From Candidatus Peregrinibacteria bacterium (lineage in GTDB: Bacteria > Patescibacteriota > Gracilibacteria > UBA1369): a stretch of 64,000 nucleotides of DNA. The notes under the pieces are model-generated. The model did not search any database. It had not been told where the DNA came from and was given only the letters and a program-made list of their open reading frames with translations. This document shows, piece by piece, positions 25,003 to 34,246 of the stretch. Each line of letters opens with the position of its first letter. The first letter of the stretch is position 1. The translations under genes were made by a program, and so were the position numbers. The stretch spans positions 8,050-72,049 of the forward strand of contig JAGQLQ010000013.1 of NCBI GenBank assembly GCA_020429235.1. Reading direction: 5' to 3'.

Positions 25003-25362
25003 CTAAAAGAGACCTAGAAATTTCTTCTTTTTCCCTTCCTCTGGAGCCGGATTCTTCTCATCCAGCTCTTCCAAAAGCGCTTCAGGATTCTCCTCTGCAC
25101 TAGCCACGCGCTCTTGATCCTGCAAAACAGCACGGCTCAAGTCACGCTCTGCTTCCTTAAGGTCAGCCAACATTCCATCAAAATCTGGTTGTGGAACAGC
25201 AGCCTCTTCACGCAAAATCGCAATCGAGTCACGTATTTCCTGTTCGCTCGATTCCATAAGGGTGGCAATCATCTGTTGTCGAACCTCTGGCCGCATCTCC
25301 CGAAAAGTCGGAGAAACAGCGAGCAAACCTTTCAATTCTTGTTGTAGATCAGCTAGAGCCAT
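25003..25362 (-). CDS. Hypothetical protein (119 aa)
   Basis: Clean ORF 18 nt downstream of the 484 aa gene, with an acidic body and a KKKKFLGLF tail. Confidence 0.5.
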   Translation of the reverse strand: MALADLQQELKGLLAVSPTFREMRPEVRQQMIATLMESSEQEIRDSIAILREEAAVPQPDFDGMLADLKEAERDLSRAVLQDQERVASAEENPEALLEELDEKNPAPEEGKKKKFLGLF

Positions 25363-25380
25363 GCCATTTCAAGTTAGGAA

Positions 25381-26835
25381 CTACGCAGTTGCAGAATCAA
25401 TCTTCACTTCTCCTTGTGCATATCGAACACCGGTATCAACCTTAGCATCATCACCCTTCTTCTCTACTGGTCCCCATGCAACTTTATTATCACCAATCTC
25501 GACAAAGTGTTTTTGACCTGTAGCACCTGTTCCTTCCATTCGCACAGAAGTAATGTTATTAGCTTTTGCAAGCTTGGCGATATCTTCTGCCATACCTTGT
25601 ATAATCTTTGGCATATCACCAACCTGTGGAGCTGAAGAAGCCATAATCAAATCTTTTGCAATCTTATTGATTTTTTTCTGTGCGAATTCCTTTGATTCAG
25701 CAGCAGAAGCTGATACACGTTCAGGCTTTGTATCTGAATTTACGAGTACAATTGTCCCAGTCAAGACGCCTTCTTCAGTTGAACCCTCTTCCTCATAAGG
25801 GATTGGTTGATCCTTCTCTGATTTTCCTTTCATATAAAGTTTCCCATCTGGATCCTTAAAGACTGAAATACCATTTCCAAGATCAATTTTTGACCCAACA
25901 GGAGCTGCCTTAAGCCATTCCACATCTTTTCGGAATTGATCTCGATTTTTATCAAGATTTTCTTGAGATTTTTCTCCCTCAGAAGAGGCAGGGAACTTAG
26001 CCATATCCTTTCGTTCAGGATCCTTATTGAATACAATTTCTTGACGGATACCTTCTACATTTTGATGCCCCTTCCCAGTGATCCACCATTCAATACGAAC
26101 AGATTGACCATCGGTTGAAGGAGTAATAACAGCTCGAATCAAGTTATTCTTGGCCATTTCTCTTGTATAGAGCGCATCACCTTTCTCTTTCTTAATTTCA
26201 AGCTGCTTGCCTCCACATTTCTTAATCAAAGCTTCCGCATCAACAAGGTCGTCCTCCTGCCGAAGCATAGCCTCAATACTCGATTGAACCTTCTGATCAG
26301 TCGTAGCCTCCTTCACCTCTGGCGTAACCTCTTCTTGTTTTGGTTCTGGAGCAGGAGCAGCATTAGGATTGAATTCAATGTCTCCATAATTAGTGAGAAG
26401 TTTATCATCCAATGGATCACTACTAGTGACAGCAGCTTTATATTCCTCATTAAACGCTTTTACTTTTTGAGACAACTTGCTCTTAACAGCTTCTTGTTGA
26501 GCTTTCACCTGATCAATAGCATCCATAATGGTATTAAACGTCTCAACACCCTTCTTAATAGCATCCCGAAGACTTTGTGGCATTCCAGCTTTAATATAAC
26601 TCTGCTCATATTCACCCTCAAATTCAGTACCACTTATGGTCACTTTATACTGTTGTGATATATCATCAAACCTCTTCTGGAGAGCATTTACAACTGGTAT
26701 AACAGATGATTCTAACTCTTCCAAAGTTTTCCATGTTTCTTTCCCAGCCTCTATATCTTGAGAAGGTGCTTCTTGAGGTGCCGAACTTGGCTTGTTTTTG
26801 AAGATGAGTCGAGATTCTGCAAAGAACTTTTTCAT
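25381..26835 (-). CDS. Hypothetical protein (484 aa)
   Basis: Long clean ORF with no TM segment or known motif. A TGcTATAAT extended -10 lies upstream on the minus strand, near 26870. Confidence 0.55.
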   Translation of the reverse strand: MKKFFAESRLIFKNKPSSAPQEAPSQDIEAGKETWKTLEELESSVIPVVNALQKRFDDISQQYKVTISGTEFEGEYEQSYIKAGMPQSLRDAIKKGVETFNTIMDAIDQVKAQQEAVKSKLSQKVKAFNEEYKAAVTSSDPLDDKLLTNYGDIEFNPNAAPAPEPKQEEVTPEVKEATTDQKVQSSIEAMLRQEDDLVDAEALIKKCGGKQLEIKKEKGDALYTREMAKNNLIRAVITPSTDGQSVRIEWWITGKGHQNVEGIRQEIVFNKDPERKDMAKFPASSEGEKSQENLDKNRDQFRKDVEWLKAAPVGSKIDLGNGISVFKDPDGKLYMKGKSEKDQPIPYEEEGSTEEGVLTGTIVLVNSDTKPERVSASAAESKEFAQKKINKIAKDLIMASSAPQVGDMPKIIQGMAEDIAKLAKANNITSVRMEGTGATGQKHFVEIGDNKVAWGPVEKKGDDAKVDTGVRYAQGEVKIDSATA

Positions 26836-28719: not shown

Positions 28720-28863
28720 CTACGATTCAAACTGGTCCAGCTGTTCCAAAAACGCTTCAGCCTTTTTTCTCAACTCTTCATAACTCTTAAGAGCCTTTTC
28801 ATTTTCAGCATGCATCGCATCCACCATCTCTAATCCCAGTTGTAAAAGTTTGTCGTCCTTCAT
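28720..28863 (-). CDS. Possible 47 aa coiled-coil ORF trailing the orphan operon
   Basis: My own translation is MKDDKLLQLGLEMVDAMHAENEKALKSYEELRKKAEAFLEQLDQFES. It starts 10 nt after the stop of the 856 aa gene and is below the ORF-track length cutoff. Confidence 0.25.
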   Translation of the reverse strand: MKDDKLLQLGLEMVDAMHAENEKALKSYEELRKKAEAFLEQLDQFES

Positions 28864-28872
28864 CTCCAAAAA

Positions 28873-31443
28873 TTAAGAAATACGAGGATCATATGCCGAA
28901 TCCACAACCACCACATTCATGCCATGGTACGCCATCGCGTGTGAAATTGGCAGGTGGTGTTCCTTCCCGCCCTTTGGCCACGATTCATGGAGCGCGCCAA
29001 TCGTCAAAAATGAAACCTCATCGGATGACCGCAAAACCTGATCGGCCAGATATGACGCAATAAAGGCATTATGCGCATCCATCCGATACAACAAGCTCTC
29101 TTTCCCTTCCATAATCAAATTTTTCGACTCATCAAAATCGTATCCGCGAACATCCAGGCCATTCCCTGCAACAAGCTTGGCTTGAAAAGAAGCATAATCA
29201 AACTGCTCCCGATATTCCGGAGGAACATTTTTTTTCATCTCCTCAATAGCCGTTGAAATATGCTCTTTTGGAATAGTTTTCGGAAAATCCTGCATCGAAT
29301 AGTTGCGGGGCGTTCCTTCATCATAAACAGTATCAATAAATCCGGCTTCATACGCGCGTAAAATAGCATCACGAATCTCTGCCTGAGAATCTGCAGTGGA
29401 TCGGCCTCCCCCTTCACCGGCCATTGATTGTGCTTTTTTCTCAGTTTCCGCATCAAGACTCAAACCCGGAACAGCCGGGTGAGCCTGCATAAAAAGAACG
29501 ACAGTTTTTGCATTTGGATTCGCGCTTTCCACAACATATGACGGATGAATTTCAAGTTTCTTTAATTGATCCACCGCTTCACGTAGTGAATTAGAGCCAA
29601 CTCCCTCAATCTCTTCAATCCCAACTTTCTTCACGCCGGACTTCTCCACTTCAGCTTTCATCTCTGTGGCAATCTCCTCAAATGCCGTATCAATGTGTGT
29701 TTCTTTCTTCGAGTCAAAGTCACCCCGCAGATCCTTATACGTTTTTTCCAAAGCAAAAAGATCCGGGTCTTTTGGATGATCTTTCTTGAGTTGGTCCAAA
29801 AGTTTCTTGGAATCATCCAGGATTTTTTCAACCGATTGACCGGACGCTTTCAATTTTTCATCATCTTCCATTAAAATCACCAGCTTCTCACGGAGTTTGT
29901 CCGCAGGAGATTCTGGGGCTTGTTCAACATTCTTTTTATAAAGTTTCCCATACTTTCCCTCAGGGGCTGGCGTTGGTGACGGAGCTGGTCCGGGAGCCGG
30001 ACTTGGTGTCTGTTTGTCTTCTTTTTGTCGTGCTGCCTCACGCTCATCAGCCTTTCTTTTCTCCTCTTGTTGCACCGCGGCATCATCCAGTTCACTATCC
30101 ATCGACTTCACTTTTGTCAAAATCGACTCCATATAACTGAGCGACGAATCCACCTGTTTCGACATCACGAGCAACTCATCTGTACTACTAAACTCACTTA
30201 CGAGAATTTTTTTCATATCCTTTTCAGCATAAGCAAGCCGTTGATTCACAACATCAATATCCTCTTCAGAAAAATGATTCAGTGATTCATTCCGTTTCAT
30301 CATCCTTGCCGCTGCATCATTCACACTCTTATAGGTCGTCTCCAAACTGCTTCCCAGTTTCTGTGCATACTCAATCGCCTCAACCCGAAGCGCCTCTTTC
30401 ACCCGATCAATTTGTCTGGCATCATCAGTAGAGCCAATATCCTCAGGATTTTTCTGTAAAAACATCCGATCATCCGGATTTTTCAACTTCAATCCAACGC
30501 CTTTTTCAAGCTGCTCTGCATATTTTTGAAGACCGGTAAACTCATCCTGCACGCTCTTTTTTTCATCCATCCATTCATTCGGAGAAAGCACCAGCGCCAA
30601 CGCGTGCATCTGATGTTTCCCGGTTTCCAGATCAAGCCGGTCCGGATCCTCCGGCTTTTGGTTGTCCGGTAAATTTAAAACATTTCCATAATTTTTAATG
30701 GTCTGCAAAAGATACGCGCGATAAGCAGATTCATCTTTTTGTGAAAGATTTTCCCCGGCAGCCATCAGGTAAGCGACAGCAAAACCTTCGCTTTCCTTGG
30801 CCAGTTTTAGATCTTTGACCATGTTCAGATACTTCTCCATATTCAAACCCTTTGCTGTATTTTCCAGATTTAAATGAGCATCAAAATTCAAATTCCACCC
30901 ATCATCAGAATGCTCATACACATCAACCGCCTTCTTAAACCACGCTTCTCCAAGCTTATCACTTATCATGGACCAACCAGCCAAAAAACCATTCAAGCGA
31001 TTCCGTGCCGGACTGACAGCATTCTCTTCCCCCCACCATTCATAATCAGTGATCCTCGCGTCCGAAGCATCGGGATCGGTCACTCCAAATGCCCATTCCC
31101 GCTTTTTCTGGACCTTATCAAGTCGCCCCTGCAGCGTATCTTTTAAAGAAAGAAGCTTATTCTGCATCGCGATCGACCGCTGAACCTCTTTCGACATAAA
31201 CTTACGCGCCAGCGTTTGCTTGTCCTTCTCCATATTTTTCATGGAATCCAGTCTCCCCAAAAGCCGATCGCGGGTTTGTTTCAACCACTCGATCTGCCGA
31301 TTCATATGTTCGTTGTCGGTGTATCCCTTAAAATGATCCTTTACACGCTGAATCTCTTCCCGATAAGCATCCTTAATATCGTCCGCCTTTACATCATCGC
31401 CGGCATCAATCCGAAACCCAAGTTGTTGCAGATTCATAGCCAT
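28873..31443 (-). CDS. Hypothetical protein (856 aa), third gene of orphan operon
   Basis: Long clean ORF. It has a Pro-rich linker (PSPAPGPAPSPTPAP) and a C-terminal ~270 aa globular region with QAH and GALH histidine motifs. Confidence 0.6.
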   Translation of the reverse strand: MAMNLQQLGFRIDAGDDVKADDIKDAYREEIQRVKDHFKGYTDNEHMNRQIEWLKQTRDRLLGRLDSMKNMEKDKQTLARKFMSKEVQRSIAMQNKLLSLKDTLQGRLDKVQKKREWAFGVTDPDASDARITDYEWWGEENAVSPARNRLNGFLAGWSMISDKLGEAWFKKAVDVYEHSDDGWNLNFDAHLNLENTAKGLNMEKYLNMVKDLKLAKESEGFAVAYLMAAGENLSQKDESAYRAYLLQTIKNYGNVLNLPDNQKPEDPDRLDLETGKHQMHALALVLSPNEWMDEKKSVQDEFTGLQKYAEQLEKGVGLKLKNPDDRMFLQKNPEDIGSTDDARQIDRVKEALRVEAIEYAQKLGSSLETTYKSVNDAAARMMKRNESLNHFSEEDIDVVNQRLAYAEKDMKKILVSEFSSTDELLVMSKQVDSSLSYMESILTKVKSMDSELDDAAVQQEEKRKADEREAARQKEDKQTPSPAPGPAPSPTPAPEGKYGKLYKKNVEQAPESPADKLREKLVILMEDDEKLKASGQSVEKILDDSKKLLDQLKKDHPKDPDLFALEKTYKDLRGDFDSKKETHIDTAFEEIATEMKAEVEKSGVKKVGIEEIEGVGSNSLREAVDQLKKLEIHPSYVVESANPNAKTVVLFMQAHPAVPGLSLDAETEKKAQSMAGEGGGRSTADSQAEIRDAILRAYEAGFIDTVYDEGTPRNYSMQDFPKTIPKEHISTAIEEMKKNVPPEYREQFDYASFQAKLVAGNGLDVRGYDFDESKNLIMEGKESLLYRMDAHNAFIASYLADQVLRSSDEVSFLTIGALHESWPKGGKEHHLPISHAMAYHGMNVVVVDSAYDPRIS

Positions 31444-31463
31444 TCACATGCGTTGGTCAGGAA

Positions 31464-33794
31464 CTAAGCGGTCTTTTTAGGAGCAAAGAAATCTTCCTTC
31501 TTTTTGTCCTCTTCCTTTTTCACTTCCACAATCACCTTCTTCTCCGCACCATCTTCTTTATAGGTCACGCTGTAGAATCCAGGATCCTGATCTTTCACCT
31601 TCTCCTGAACCTTCTGTGGGACATCCTCTTTTTTAAGATGATCACCCCTTTCTGCAGCTTCCGCCTTGGCAACATCAATCGGGTCTTTTGCAAAAGCCTC
31701 AAGACCTTTATCTCCGCCACCCTCTTTTGGAGCTCCGCTTGGTTGTCCACCTGGAGCCTGTGATGGCTTGGCATTCGTCGGATCTTTTTCTACCTCTCCA
31801 GAATCCTTTCGTTCAATACCAAGACCCTTTTCCCATCCAAGAACCTTTGGCATTCGCTTCTTCAAAGAGTCCAATTCTTCCTTGTTCGACTCAAGCCATG
31901 CCTTCTTATCTTCAGCTTTTTCATACGCTGCCTTCATACTCACAGCCTGTCGGTACTGCGTTGGAGAAGTTCGTGAAGCCGTATGATCAGTCATCACAAG
32001 AAGAACTTTGCTGGTATCCGCCTTATCTTTTTCAAGTTGCTCATCAACTTTTGGCTTCTTTTCTTCTTCTTTCTGCTCCTGCTTTTTTTGAGCTTTTTCC
32101 AGGTCTGATTTGTAGTTATAAGCAGCGCGGATGTTAGCGTCAATCAACTTCCGAATTCGTTCTTGAGCCTCAAGATCACCCATCAAAGCTTTCCCACCAC
32201 CAGCCAGCTGAACTTCATCACGAATTCGCTTCATAAGTTCACTATCACGACCAAGCTTGTCATTGATCATAGCCTTATACTTCTTCAAAAATTCAGGATC
32301 CTTTTTCCCATACATTTGATCAGCACCTTCCATTAGGCCGGCAATCATTGCGAGGCCCTTCCCACCAACCATATAACGAAGAGTCTCATCTCCATAAGCA
32401 CTAGAATGATCCATAATATACTTACTAATATCCAAATCATTCACATTCATTTTTGCAGAATCAAAATTCCCACCCATCATTTTCGCCAAAGTTCGTTGAG
32501 CAATTCTATCCCATTCAGATGGGTCATTACTTGCCCACATAGCTCCTTCCAATGCACTGCGAATCATTGCAAGTCGGCTCGGATCATCAATCTCTTCATT
32601 GAACTGAATCTTTCCCAAAACAGTATCAATAAAATTAGAGCGATCCTTTTCCGCCCCATGAAGGACTTCTTTTAGTTGTTCAGAATCACCATGCTCTTTT
32701 AGCCATTGGGCTGGAGAAAGAATATCCTGATCATTAGTCCCTTTATTCAACTTATCCATAAAATCTGCATCGCCCATCTTTTCTTGGACATAAGCCTGGT
32801 AGGCCTTAAACGCTCCAGGGGCATTATGCTTTTCAGAAAAATATTTATCAGCAGAAGCCATCTTTCCAAGAATATGGCCCACAGCTTTTGGCTTATCTAC
32901 AGGCGCTCCCATTCTTTCAGTAACATGCTTGAACATGCTCATATCTTTTACATTCGATTTTTCATCAGGTTGAAAAGACGCATCGTAAACAAACCAGTTA
33001 ATCTGTCTTTTATCGCCACCATTCTCAAGTCTTTGTTTTTTGATTTTTTCAACCAAAGCATCAGCAGCTTCTTTTCCTTGTTCTTCATACGTCGTTTGAA
33101 CTGTTTCGGTAAGGAAATCGAGCTGATCTGTACGGGTCCAGTTGGTTGAACCTCCAGCAGCTTTCCCTTCAACATGTTGTTGCATCTGCATCCCCTTCGC
33201 AAAATGGCTATCATCATTCAAGGGAGCAGACTGATGGAACTGAAAGTTCTTCTTTACCGATGCTTTCACAGTATCCCAGTTTCCTTCATCCTCTTTGTTT
33301 GGATGATTTTGTCGCAATTCAACATCATGCGCTTCCATCTCAAGCACAATTGATTGTCGATACTTGGTCGCCTCTTCTTTAATCTCAGCATTGCGAGCTT
33401 TTACCGCAGATTCAATCTTACCCAAAGAAGTGTCTCGCGCAGTTTCGAGCTCTTTTTTGTATTGCTTCAATTTCTCAGGAATTTTCTTTTTTTCCGCCTC
33501 AATATCAGATTTCAATTTATCCTTGTTCGGATCATCATCCTTAATCGCTGCCAATTTCGCATCAAGCATCCCCTCCAATTCTGTCTTCTTGGAATCAACT
33601 TTTCCTTTAATAATCCCATCATAGTACGTCTTGTCAGTATCAGATTTGTACTCAGTCACGGTTTCCGCCTTCTTGGCAGCTTCAATTTTTGACCCCTCTG
33701 TTTCAGAAAAAGGATTCTCAGACGGTCCACCTTCATAAACAAATCGAGGACCCATGGAAGGGACAAAGTTTGTGTGACAGTATAAAAATTTCAT
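31464..33794 (-). CDS. Hypothetical K/E-rich protein (776 aa), second gene of orphan operon
   Basis: Long clean ORF with 20-nt gaps to both neighbours and no motif I recognise. Confidence 0.6.
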   Translation of the reverse strand: MKFLYCHTNFVPSMGPRFVYEGGPSENPFSETEGSKIEAAKKAETVTEYKSDTDKTYYDGIIKGKVDSKKTELEGMLDAKLAAIKDDDPNKDKLKSDIEAEKKKIPEKLKQYKKELETARDTSLGKIESAVKARNAEIKEEATKYRQSIVLEMEAHDVELRQNHPNKEDEGNWDTVKASVKKNFQFHQSAPLNDDSHFAKGMQMQQHVEGKAAGGSTNWTRTDQLDFLTETVQTTYEEQGKEAADALVEKIKKQRLENGGDKRQINWFVYDASFQPDEKSNVKDMSMFKHVTERMGAPVDKPKAVGHILGKMASADKYFSEKHNAPGAFKAYQAYVQEKMGDADFMDKLNKGTNDQDILSPAQWLKEHGDSEQLKEVLHGAEKDRSNFIDTVLGKIQFNEEIDDPSRLAMIRSALEGAMWASNDPSEWDRIAQRTLAKMMGGNFDSAKMNVNDLDISKYIMDHSSAYGDETLRYMVGGKGLAMIAGLMEGADQMYGKKDPEFLKKYKAMINDKLGRDSELMKRIRDEVQLAGGGKALMGDLEAQERIRKLIDANIRAAYNYKSDLEKAQKKQEQKEEEKKPKVDEQLEKDKADTSKVLLVMTDHTASRTSPTQYRQAVSMKAAYEKAEDKKAWLESNKEELDSLKKRMPKVLGWEKGLGIERKDSGEVEKDPTNAKPSQAPGGQPSGAPKEGGGDKGLEAFAKDPIDVAKAEAAERGDHLKKEDVPQKVQEKVKDQDPGFYSVTYKEDGAEKKVIVEVKKEEDKKKEDFFAPKKTA

Positions 33795-33813
33795 GATGCG
33801 AGTTTTTTAGTTT

Positions 33814-34176
33814 TTATATTTTTTTCAAAATTTGTTCAGCAGCTTCACGCTCTTTCTCTTCAGCTTTTGCACGAGCCTCTTTTTGGGGCTCTTCAAAATA
33901 CTGTTTCTCAAGTTCGGTAGCCGTAATGTTAAAATCATCAATCGCCTCCTCCCGATCTTTCAAAAAGTCAGCATTAATTTTCCCAATAGCCTCCTCTTCA
34001 TGTTTCAGATGAAGATACAATTTCCGAAGTAGTCCAAAATCTTTTGCCTCAATAGCTGCATCAATTCTTGTTTTTTCTTCGACCGATAAACTCTGTACCG
34101 CCAGCGATTTTCCATAGAGATCCAGGAATCGCTCAAGGGTGAAAGAGTCGTCATGATCTGCCATCATTTGTGACAT
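33814..34176 (-). CDS. Hypothetical helical protein (120 aa), first gene of orphan operon
   Basis: Clean ORF directly downstream of an extended -10 promoter. Confidence 0.5.
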   Translation of the reverse strand: MSQMMADHDDSFTLERFLDLYGKSLAVQSLSVEEKTRIDAAIEAKDFGLLRKLYLHLKHEEEAIGKINADFLKDREEAIDDFNITATELEKQYFEEPQKEARAKAEEKEREAAEQILKKI

Positions 34177-34199
34177 AGGAAGGTTTTTAGTATCTCAAT

Positions 34200-34208
34200 A
34201 TTATAACA
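34200..34208 (-). promoter_or_regulatory. Extended -10 element (TGTTATAAT) for the 120/776/856 aa operon
   Basis: The minus strand reads TGTTATAAT about 25 nt upstream of the ATG at 34176. Confidence 0.4.
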
Positions 34209-34246
34209 CAAATCGAAAATTAAACAAATGGGACATAGATCCAAAA

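Follow-up and report, generated by a model that had tools for sequence, protein, structure and literature searches.

The window analysed here is a stretch of 64,000 nucleotides from a Candidatus Peregrinibacteria bacterium (assembly GCA_020429235.1, contig JAGQLQ010000013.1, positions 8,050 to 72,049 of the forward strand). It contains a minus-strand operon that encodes four proteins of 120, 776, 856 and 47 amino acids (aa), hereafter named p120, p776, p856 and p47. The first three had been regarded in the initial annotation as large lineage-specific orphans. Our analysis shows instead that the operon proteins are built from recurring parts, namely a tag at the N-terminus, a small partner protein, and an enzyme-like domain that can be swapped and is accompanied by its own mini-partner. 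The reading that we favour, with a probability of about 0.35, is that the operon encodes an effector complex targeted by a leader and an adaptor and provided with an enzyme and its inhibitor. The features of the operon are as follows (ORF, open reading frame; AF2, AlphaFold2; pLDDT, predicted local distance difference test; dS, synonymous divergence).

Promoter, 34200-34230, minus strand: extended -10 element TGTTATAAT at 34200-34208 and -35-like hexamer TTGTTT at 34222-34227, read directly from the sequence.
p120, 33814-34176, minus strand: ORF of 120 aa.
p776, 31464-33794, minus strand: ORF of 776 aa, a leader-bearing large helical protein.
p776 N-terminal leader, 33723-33794, minus strand: MKFLYCHTNFVPSMGPRFVYEGGP, with the motif MK-x(6-25)-[RK][LF][VIA][FY]-x(2-5)-P.
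p776 replaced-allele block (aa 61-600), 31995-33614, minus strand: delimited by DNA identity and dS against the sister strain G001.
p776 C-terminal region, 31467-31844, minus strand: disordered linker rich in Pro and Gly (aa 651-709) and a small domain of beta structure (aa 707-758), from AF2 pLDDT and DSSP.
p856, 28873-31443, minus strand: ORF of 856 aa.
p856 N-terminal all-alpha domain (aa 1-476), 30016-31443, minus strand: alignment A1, AF2 pLDDT about 85-90, conserved throughout the bacterial family.
p856 Pro-rich linker (aa 477-510), 29914-30015, minus strand: pLDDT <50, junction of the C-terminal swap.
p856 C-terminal domain (aa 511-856; hereafter C-domain), 28873-29913, minus strand: a helical segment with YP-x-DPD, together with a hydrolase-like alpha/beta domain in which His/Glu/His are invariant.
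p47, 28720-28863, minus strand: 47 aa with an ATG start, lying within a 49-aa ORF with a TTG start (28720-28869), the ATG being two codons in.

The p776 leader, the small helical family and allele replacement

The leader of p776 has a defined anatomy. It consists of Met-Lys, 6-25 residues rich in aromatic amino acids (often with a Cys at position 4-7) and the sequence [RK]-[LF]-[VIA]-[FY], after which the chain becomes acidic and rich in Pro. It is common to 30 aligned proteins of 140 to 1969 aa that are alignable nowhere else, and the Arg is invariant among them. The leader-bearing proteins are large and Cys-poor, and are usually encoded just downstream of a p120-like gene. A hidden Markov model of the leader, trained on other genomes only, was run on the 1250 ORFs of the source genome (G000, a 1.23-Mb assembly in 77 contigs) and placed p776 third, with an E value of 1e-3. 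The top four matches were four large orphans: a 1020-aa protein (3e-6), p484 (3e-4), p776 and a 1969-aa protein (0.011); noise was observed from E 0.1 upward. The gene of p484 is also located in the window, and its leader reads MKKFFAESRLIFKNKP. The AF2 model draws the p776 leader, with low confidence, as a beta-hairpin with strands at residues 4-7 and 17-20. In the public database the p776 gene (P0006, 763 aa) is called from Met14 and thereby loses most of the leader; that the leader is conserved across the family speaks for Met1. Homologues of p776 were found at the same operon position in other genera, and in two genera that lack p776 the leader is borne by the p856-type protein itself.

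Additional leader-bearing, Cys-poor proteins of 1272, 1020, 1969 and 598 aa are encoded elsewhere in G000 (C43:1340-5158, C55:6162-9224, C71:979-6888 and C76:1020-2816; loci L060-L063), with no significant Pfam domain.

The protein encoded upstream of p776, p120, is an acidic, all-helical member of a family of ~115 aa, whose alignment (A4) finds p120 at E 2e-30. This small family was detected in 94 of the 151 genomes of the class (about 60%), and searches of Pfam and PDB with its proteins (n=21) gave no match. It also includes p119, encoded in the window, and has a conserved C-terminal 'AE-x-LL-x-x-L' end. Comparison of p120 with its counterpart in the sister strain revealed 99% identity and a ratio of nonsynonymous to synonymous divergence (dN/dS) of 0.02. 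In 30 loci, a small-family gene was followed directly by a leader-bearing ORF in 14 of 41 cases, against a background of 6.5% (binomial P = 1.5e-7). The C-terminus of some members consists of a KKKKFLGLF-type tail or a transmembrane (TM) segment, and this suggests that they act at the membrane. p120 itself is proposed to be an adaptor or chaperone.

The same toolkit was found in the p119/p484 pair of the window (25003-26835), in which p484 bears the leader MKKFFAESRLIF and p119 belongs to the small family. p119 ends in KKKKFLGLF, like the membrane-targeting tails of MinD and FtsA, and KKKKFGIF forms the end of a relative (L027:4641-5030). The gene of a third small-family member, which is extended at its N-terminus by a Gln-rich part, is the last in an operon of three charged orphans (G000 C2:8739-12110, L064), and a weaker relative of 111 aa lies directly before a 2083-aa orphan (G000 C69:35251-41834, L065). 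Between greA and valS, a conserved small-helical subfamily of ~126 aa with the motif KFPDLVEMIK-S-x-SM-x-x-EER-x-YW…LPVM was present in other families of the class (L039, L042, L047, L050, L052 and L053), adjoined in L039, L047, L052 and L053 by a gene for a PrsW-like membrane protease.

The two strains G000 and G001 differ sharply in part of this gene set. DNA identity between them is 56-87% in aa 61-600 of p776 and ~97% in the flanks. The block shows a dS of 0.93 and a dN/dS of 0.30, with surrounding dS values of 0.08-0.34. The same replaced-allele pattern was observed in p484 and p119, with a dS of ~2, whereas p856, p120, FemAB and the neighbouring MFS-HEAT gene are nearly identical between the two strains. 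Accelerated evolution of p776 in situ was considered and dropped in favour of an imported allele, because synonymous sites, too, have diverged ten-fold more, at a dN/dS of 0.30. The p776 core and the p484/p119 pair are thus imported divergent alleles under purifying selection, and not products of decay.

The exchangeable C-terminus of p856 and its association with p47

Proteins of the p856 type were found with profile A1 in 8 of 8 sampled genomes of the bacterial family and in 0 of the 73 genomes that represent the order's other families. When profiles A1 and A2 were compared with hhalign, residues 134-296 of p856 were matched to residues 208-369 of p776 (probability 51%, E 1.5e-4), and on the basis of this match the two large proteins are probably ancient, distant paralogues. 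The part that follows the N-terminal domain of p856 varies between genera. In most of them it comprises an SH3-like segment and a module of ~400 aa that we refer to as 'LDWGGG'; in genus g19 the C-domain comes after this module; in the genus of the window the module is missing and the C-domain alone follows the Pro-rich linker. With three kinds of C-terminus on a shared N-terminal domain, the C-terminus of p856 is a swap site. An SH3b identity of the SH3-like segment was rejected, since the pattern is similar and yet unsupported by Pfam or PDB profile searches.

The p856 homologue in G046 is a single ORF of 1431 aa (L027:7954-12249), and that in G019 is divided into overlapping ORFs of 1155 aa and 439 aa (L009:8005-12481); a frameshift, an error of assembly or a recent fission could account for the split. 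The p856-type protein of G007 (L031:348-3410) contains a glycine-zipper insert, GTGVGAALGTGVSGPLGTVVGTVVGAAAG (Pfam Gly-zipper_YMGG, E 2e-4), with which this member of a family that is otherwise soluble might insert into membranes.

An exhaustive profile search detected the C-domain in 93 representative clusters, mostly as free-standing proteins of ~350 aa. Among 63 members, H147, E201, G259, G308 and H311 are invariant and S178, Q179, R279, N284 and E312 are near-invariant (residues numbered as in the C-terminal fragment at 28873-29919 of the window). The spread of the domain is patchy, with 8 of 151 genomes of the class and 2 of 301 genomes of the phylum, and this excludes it as a Candidate Phyla Radiation (CPR) housekeeping gene.

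The initial annotation had left it in doubt whether the 47-aa ORF after p856 belongs to the operon. Homologues of p47, which are helical ORFs of 47-61 aa, recur with the C-domain in 11 other loci. A p47-like ORF is situated directly 3' of every fused C-domain (G046, G019 and G047) and directly 5' of the free-standing C-domain gene, often overlapping it, in L057, L066, L067, L068, L069, L070, L072 and L073. In genera whose p856 lacks the C-domain no p47-like ORF was present, nor was there room for one. This recurrence rules out a spurious ORF and indicates that p47 is a real gene tied to the C-domain. In the reading that we favour, p47 would be the cognate binding partner of the C-domain, most likely an inhibitor. 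In L067, a PrsW gene also precedes the free-standing p47/C-domain pair.

One important question is whether the C-domain belongs to a known enzyme superfamily. The candidate considered was the TIKI superfamily, which includes TraB-PrgY-GumN, erythromycin esterase and ChaN proteins and also RRSP and HopBA1. TIKI-superfamily enzymes have a set of two His and two Glu residues and a core of parallel beta-sheet flanked by helices, and TIKI domains have been found as effectors with varied appended domains (PMC6254334). The C-domain is predicted, with low confidence, to share the alternation of beta and alpha elements: in the AF2 model, strands 636-639, 646-652, 705-707, 813-817 and 842-848 of p856 alternate with helices, at pLDDT 30-75 and with 3 informative sequences. 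It also resembles TraB proteins in motif order, since GxxH…E…RN…GxxH…L…G in the latter has its counterpart in a β-strand-x-H, E, R…N on a helix, GAxHE and L…G-x-V-V-V in the former. The candidate equivalents of the catalytic His and Glu set would be H147, E201, H311 and E312. By contrast, its first motif is Q-x-H-P and not G-x-x-H, and both the helical YPNDPD segment and the dedicated partner of ~50 aa are absent from known members. Searches gave little more. PF01963 (TraB_PrgY_gumN) matched 1 of the 63 members in hmmscan at E 0.027, below the cut-off, and had no match in a search of the genome. The C-domain alignment (A5) did not match E. coli YbaP alone in hhalign; against a profile of 15 TraB sequences it gave a single match, with a probability of 6.7% and E 0.0055, that placed GAxHE…LAYxGxNV on VGxGH…LLxxKGYQIV and thus fell on the C-terminal motifs GxxH…G-x-V where a match would be expected. 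The Foldseek search of PDB with the p856 model, which includes the low-confidence C-domain, gave nothing significant. Membership of the TIKI/TraB superfamily is therefore unproven.

The p47/C-domain pairs bring to mind type II toxin-antitoxin modules. The free-standing form has a gene of ~50-60 aa immediately upstream of, and overlapping, an enzyme gene of ~350 aa, as in type II pairs, and these pairs lie in unrelated neighbourhoods and have a patchy taxonomic spread. The operon could be an intracellular toxin-antitoxin or anti-phage locus, in which the C-domain would be a toxic hydrolase, p47 its antitoxin and the helical parts of p776 and p856 sensors, and the allele block would reflect an arms race with phages. 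Such a locus requires no export signal, and the swapping of effectors on a conserved body together with allele turnover is common in defence systems. However, p47 lacks a DNA-binding motif, and the window has the two genes in the opposite order, with the enzyme part of a fusion to a carrier of 500 aa. None of the operon products matched PADLOC or PHROGs, and PADLOC was also empty for the free-standing C-domain homologue. Moreover, all members of the family have the operon, at a fixed place in the chromosome and not in variable islands, and most genera lack the C-domain and p47. Neither the leader of many unrelated proteins nor the class-wide small family is explained by a defence locus, and we consider this alternative improbable.

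Operon organisation and properties of the encoded proteins

The four genes are predicted to form one transcription unit. They are tightly spaced, with gaps of 19 nt between p120 and p776, 20 nt between p776 and p856 and 3-9 nt between p856 and p47, behind the single extended -10 element TGTTATAAT, as had been described in the initial annotation of a self-promoted operon of three genes and possibly a fourth. The spacer between the TTGTTT hexamer and this element is 16 nt, and the promoter is omitted by a consensus promoter scan because its -35 is weak. The flanking genes, an MFS-HEAT fusion on one side and FemAB on the other, are also as first reported. In at least 10 genera of one Peregrinibacteria family the genes are kept together at the same place, next to FemAB, in the order def/(MFS-HEAT), p120-like, p776-like and p856-like, convergent with FemAB. 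The larger block ftsA-ftsZ / p119-p484 / FemAB / operon / def is syntenic across genera.

Fusions of MFS and HEAT (~800 aa) were present in 45 of 121 genomes of the class. A role of MFS-HEAT as a dedicated membrane partner was discarded, given that, of 29 loci examined outside the family, 0 had a gene of the small family or a leader gene beside it; the adjacency in the window is local synteny only. A second MFS-HEAT paralogue, 33% identical and with one reported in-frame TGA, is encoded in G000 at C62:25214-27433.

The conservation of this arrangement bears on the simplest alternative, namely that the genes have no common function and are fast-evolving filler of a reduced genome, co-transcribed by chance, the leader reflecting only the composition or translation of the N-terminus. 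Hypothetical proteins abound in CPR genomes, and no biochemical function can be assigned to any of the products, as would be expected of filler. Gene order is nevertheless conserved across genera, and the genes are under purifying selection (dN/dS 0.02-0.34). The leader was detected independently and adjoins small-family genes far above background, and the C-domain/p47 pairing recurs in the 11 loci described above. Taken together, these observations make the absence of a common function very improbable.

The operon products are rich in Lys, Glu and Asp (K 13.9%, E 9.9% and D 8.8% in p776), and the AF2 models of p776 and p856 consist mainly of long helices, in agreement with what had been noticed from the sequence alone. 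The p776 model has a mean pLDDT of 70.5 and comprises a helical core and, towards the C-terminus, a linker without order and a small domain of beta structure. One Pro-rich linker had been reported; AF2 predicts two disordered ones, at residues 477-510 of p856 and 651-709 of p776. Cys is absent from the 856 residues of p856 and occurs once in p776, inside the leader (proteome average, 0.83%). Hydrophobicity was assessed as the maximum Kyte-Doolittle value of any 19-residue window, with 1.0 as yardstick. The maxima were 0.47-0.99 in p120, p776 and p856, 0.01 in p47 and 2.87 in the neighbouring transporter. Since no window of the operon products exceeds 1.0, they contain neither a TM helix nor a Sec-type signal, and the lack of both that had been noted at first sight was thereby confirmed. 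In p776 the leader is followed by the acidic, Pro-rich segment and not by a hydrophobic core.

None of the four proteins could be placed in a known family by profile or structure searches, so that the early impression of no recognisable domain was correct. No domain was detected in Pfam and NCBIfam, and nothing significant was obtained against PDB sequences with single sequences or profiles. Foldseek searches of PDB with the AF2 models of p856 and p776 gave no significant match, the best (non-significant) rows being spectrin-, vinculin- and catenin-like helical bundles. Known-family searches likewise gave nothing significant for 8 homologues, the 30 leader proteins, the 21 small proteins, the 63 C-domain relatives and the LDWGGG module, and no description of these families was found in a literature search. 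The view of the proteins as large lineage-specific orphans holds insofar as they belong to no known family; it does not hold in that the p120 family is class-wide, the p776 leader is common to many proteins and the end of p856 is also found as a separate gene.

Possible roles of the operon

Host- or partner-interaction factors and cytoskeletal or scaffold systems had been put forward as candidate roles, and both are possible. The evidence leans towards a role in conflict or interaction, because the C-domain is swapped together with a cognate mini-protein and alleles have been replaced. In the favoured reading, the operon would encode a complex specific to the bacterial family and assembled from a class-wide toolkit that has not been described before. 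p120 would be a small acidic helical adaptor, and the leader of p776 (~24 residues) would be a targeting or assembly signal; p856 would be a leaderless paralogue that travels with p776. By a route other than Sec, adaptor and leader would carry the complex of p776 and p856 to the membrane or the surface of the cell, where the enzyme domain could act on another cell (host, partner or competitor), and p47 would protect the producer. The locus would thus work like a polymorphic effector-immunity locus. What we observe is the anatomy and conservation of the operon, the leader motif, its adjacency to small-family genes, the exchange of domains, the pairing of C-domain and p47, and the replacement of alleles under purifying selection; what we infer is the binding of p120 to the leader, the export, the enzymatic activity and the inhibition by p47.

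The likeness to effector-immunity loci rests on a C-terminus that is modular and has a small gene of its own, on the patchiness of the C-domain, on replaced alleles, on the depletion of Cys and on the leader with its adjacent small partner. A close parallel is provided by the LXG-Lap-immunity or polymorphic toxin loci of Gram-positive type VII systems. In these, as in the operon, a small helical gene lies upstream of a large modular protein that has a conserved N-terminal part and an exchangeable C-terminal domain, with a small cognate gene adjoining and allele turnover by recombination. Unlike those loci, the operon lacks LXG, WXG100 or other trafficking domains (no LXG or WXG100 domain was found in the products with Pfam/NCBIfam at E up to 1) and has no EssC. 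In addition, the commonest C-terminal module of p856 has no small gene after it.

Several observations weigh against the effector reading. No hydrophobic signal peptide, twin-arginine motif with h-region or TM helix was found in the four products, so that Sec and Tat export signals are missing. An EssC-type ATPase was not detected either: each of 13 genomes (13/13) gave one FtsK_SpoIIIE match, a single-domain protein of ~760 aa, and type VII-like export was ruled out for lack of EssC. No membrane machinery linked to the operon genes was found and no export route is visible, and MFS-HEAT is not associated with small-family or leader genes outside the family (0 of 29 loci). The free-standing copies of the C-domain also lack signal peptides, and therefore the enzyme may act inside the cell. 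The enzyme assignment itself is weakened by the low hhalign probability, the sub-threshold Pfam match and the low-confidence AF2 model. In most genera p856 ends in the LDWGGG module with no small gene downstream, which fits an immunity model poorly. There are six or seven leader proteins in G000 and three small-family genes, and therefore the pairing is not one to one. Finally, Cys depletion is also usual in charged coiled-coil proteins.

The lack of export signals would be expected if the operon encoded an intracellular, membrane-associated scaffold or cytoskeleton of the envelope or division apparatus. The leader would then be a strand for assembly or docking, the small proteins membrane tethers and the C-domain a housekeeping enzyme or regulatory module. 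Such a role is consistent with long, helical, charged proteins joined by Pro-rich linkers, with the resemblance of the top non-significant Foldseek rows to cytoskeletal proteins of the spectrin, vinculin and catenin type, and with p119-type members that have a MinD/FtsA-like amphipathic C-terminal tail or a TM anchor. The p856-type proteins are universal in the family, selection on the genes is purifying, and the operon shares its syntenic block with ftsA-ftsZ. Mycoplasma terminal-organelle proteins (HMW1, HMW2, HMW3 and P65) are large, acidic and helical or coiled, with Pro-rich linkers and no signal peptides, and they belong to a reduced host-dependent bacterium. The operon proteins are like them by this general description, as acidic helical large proteins with Pro-rich linkers, but no relation in sequence is expected, there are no EAGR boxes, and the leader and small partner have no counterpart in Mycoplasma. 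Furthermore, synteny in 1-Mb genomes is weak functional evidence, it is unusual for a core cytoskeleton that strains 97% identical should differ by entire replaced alleles of p776 and p484/p119, and so is the exchange of the p856 C-terminus for a patchy domain that brings its own small partner. A scaffold is possible, though we think it somewhat unlikely, and we retain the effector complex as the preferred reading.

A life in attachment to other cells is assumed for CPR bacteria, and about half of their genes are unannotated. The operon turns hypothetical proteins into testable parts, namely a searchable leader, a small partner family and an enzyme-like domain with a mini-partner. The leader can be searched in any genome, which yields a list of candidate cargo. 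On a wider and more doubtful view, the leader and the partner family of ~115 aa might constitute a pathway, so far unrecognised, by which Peregrinibacteria and related CPR target or export proteins without Sec, Tat or type VII. It would deliver large, fast-diversifying effectors to the surface or into partner cells, and some of these effectors would combine an exchangeable enzyme domain with a cognate inhibitor. Should the leader be a targeting signal, it would open up the effectors of an entire uncultured lineage to study; even if it is not, the parts define four protein families that are new, and the locus is a clear example of replaced alleles in a genome of 1.2 Mb.

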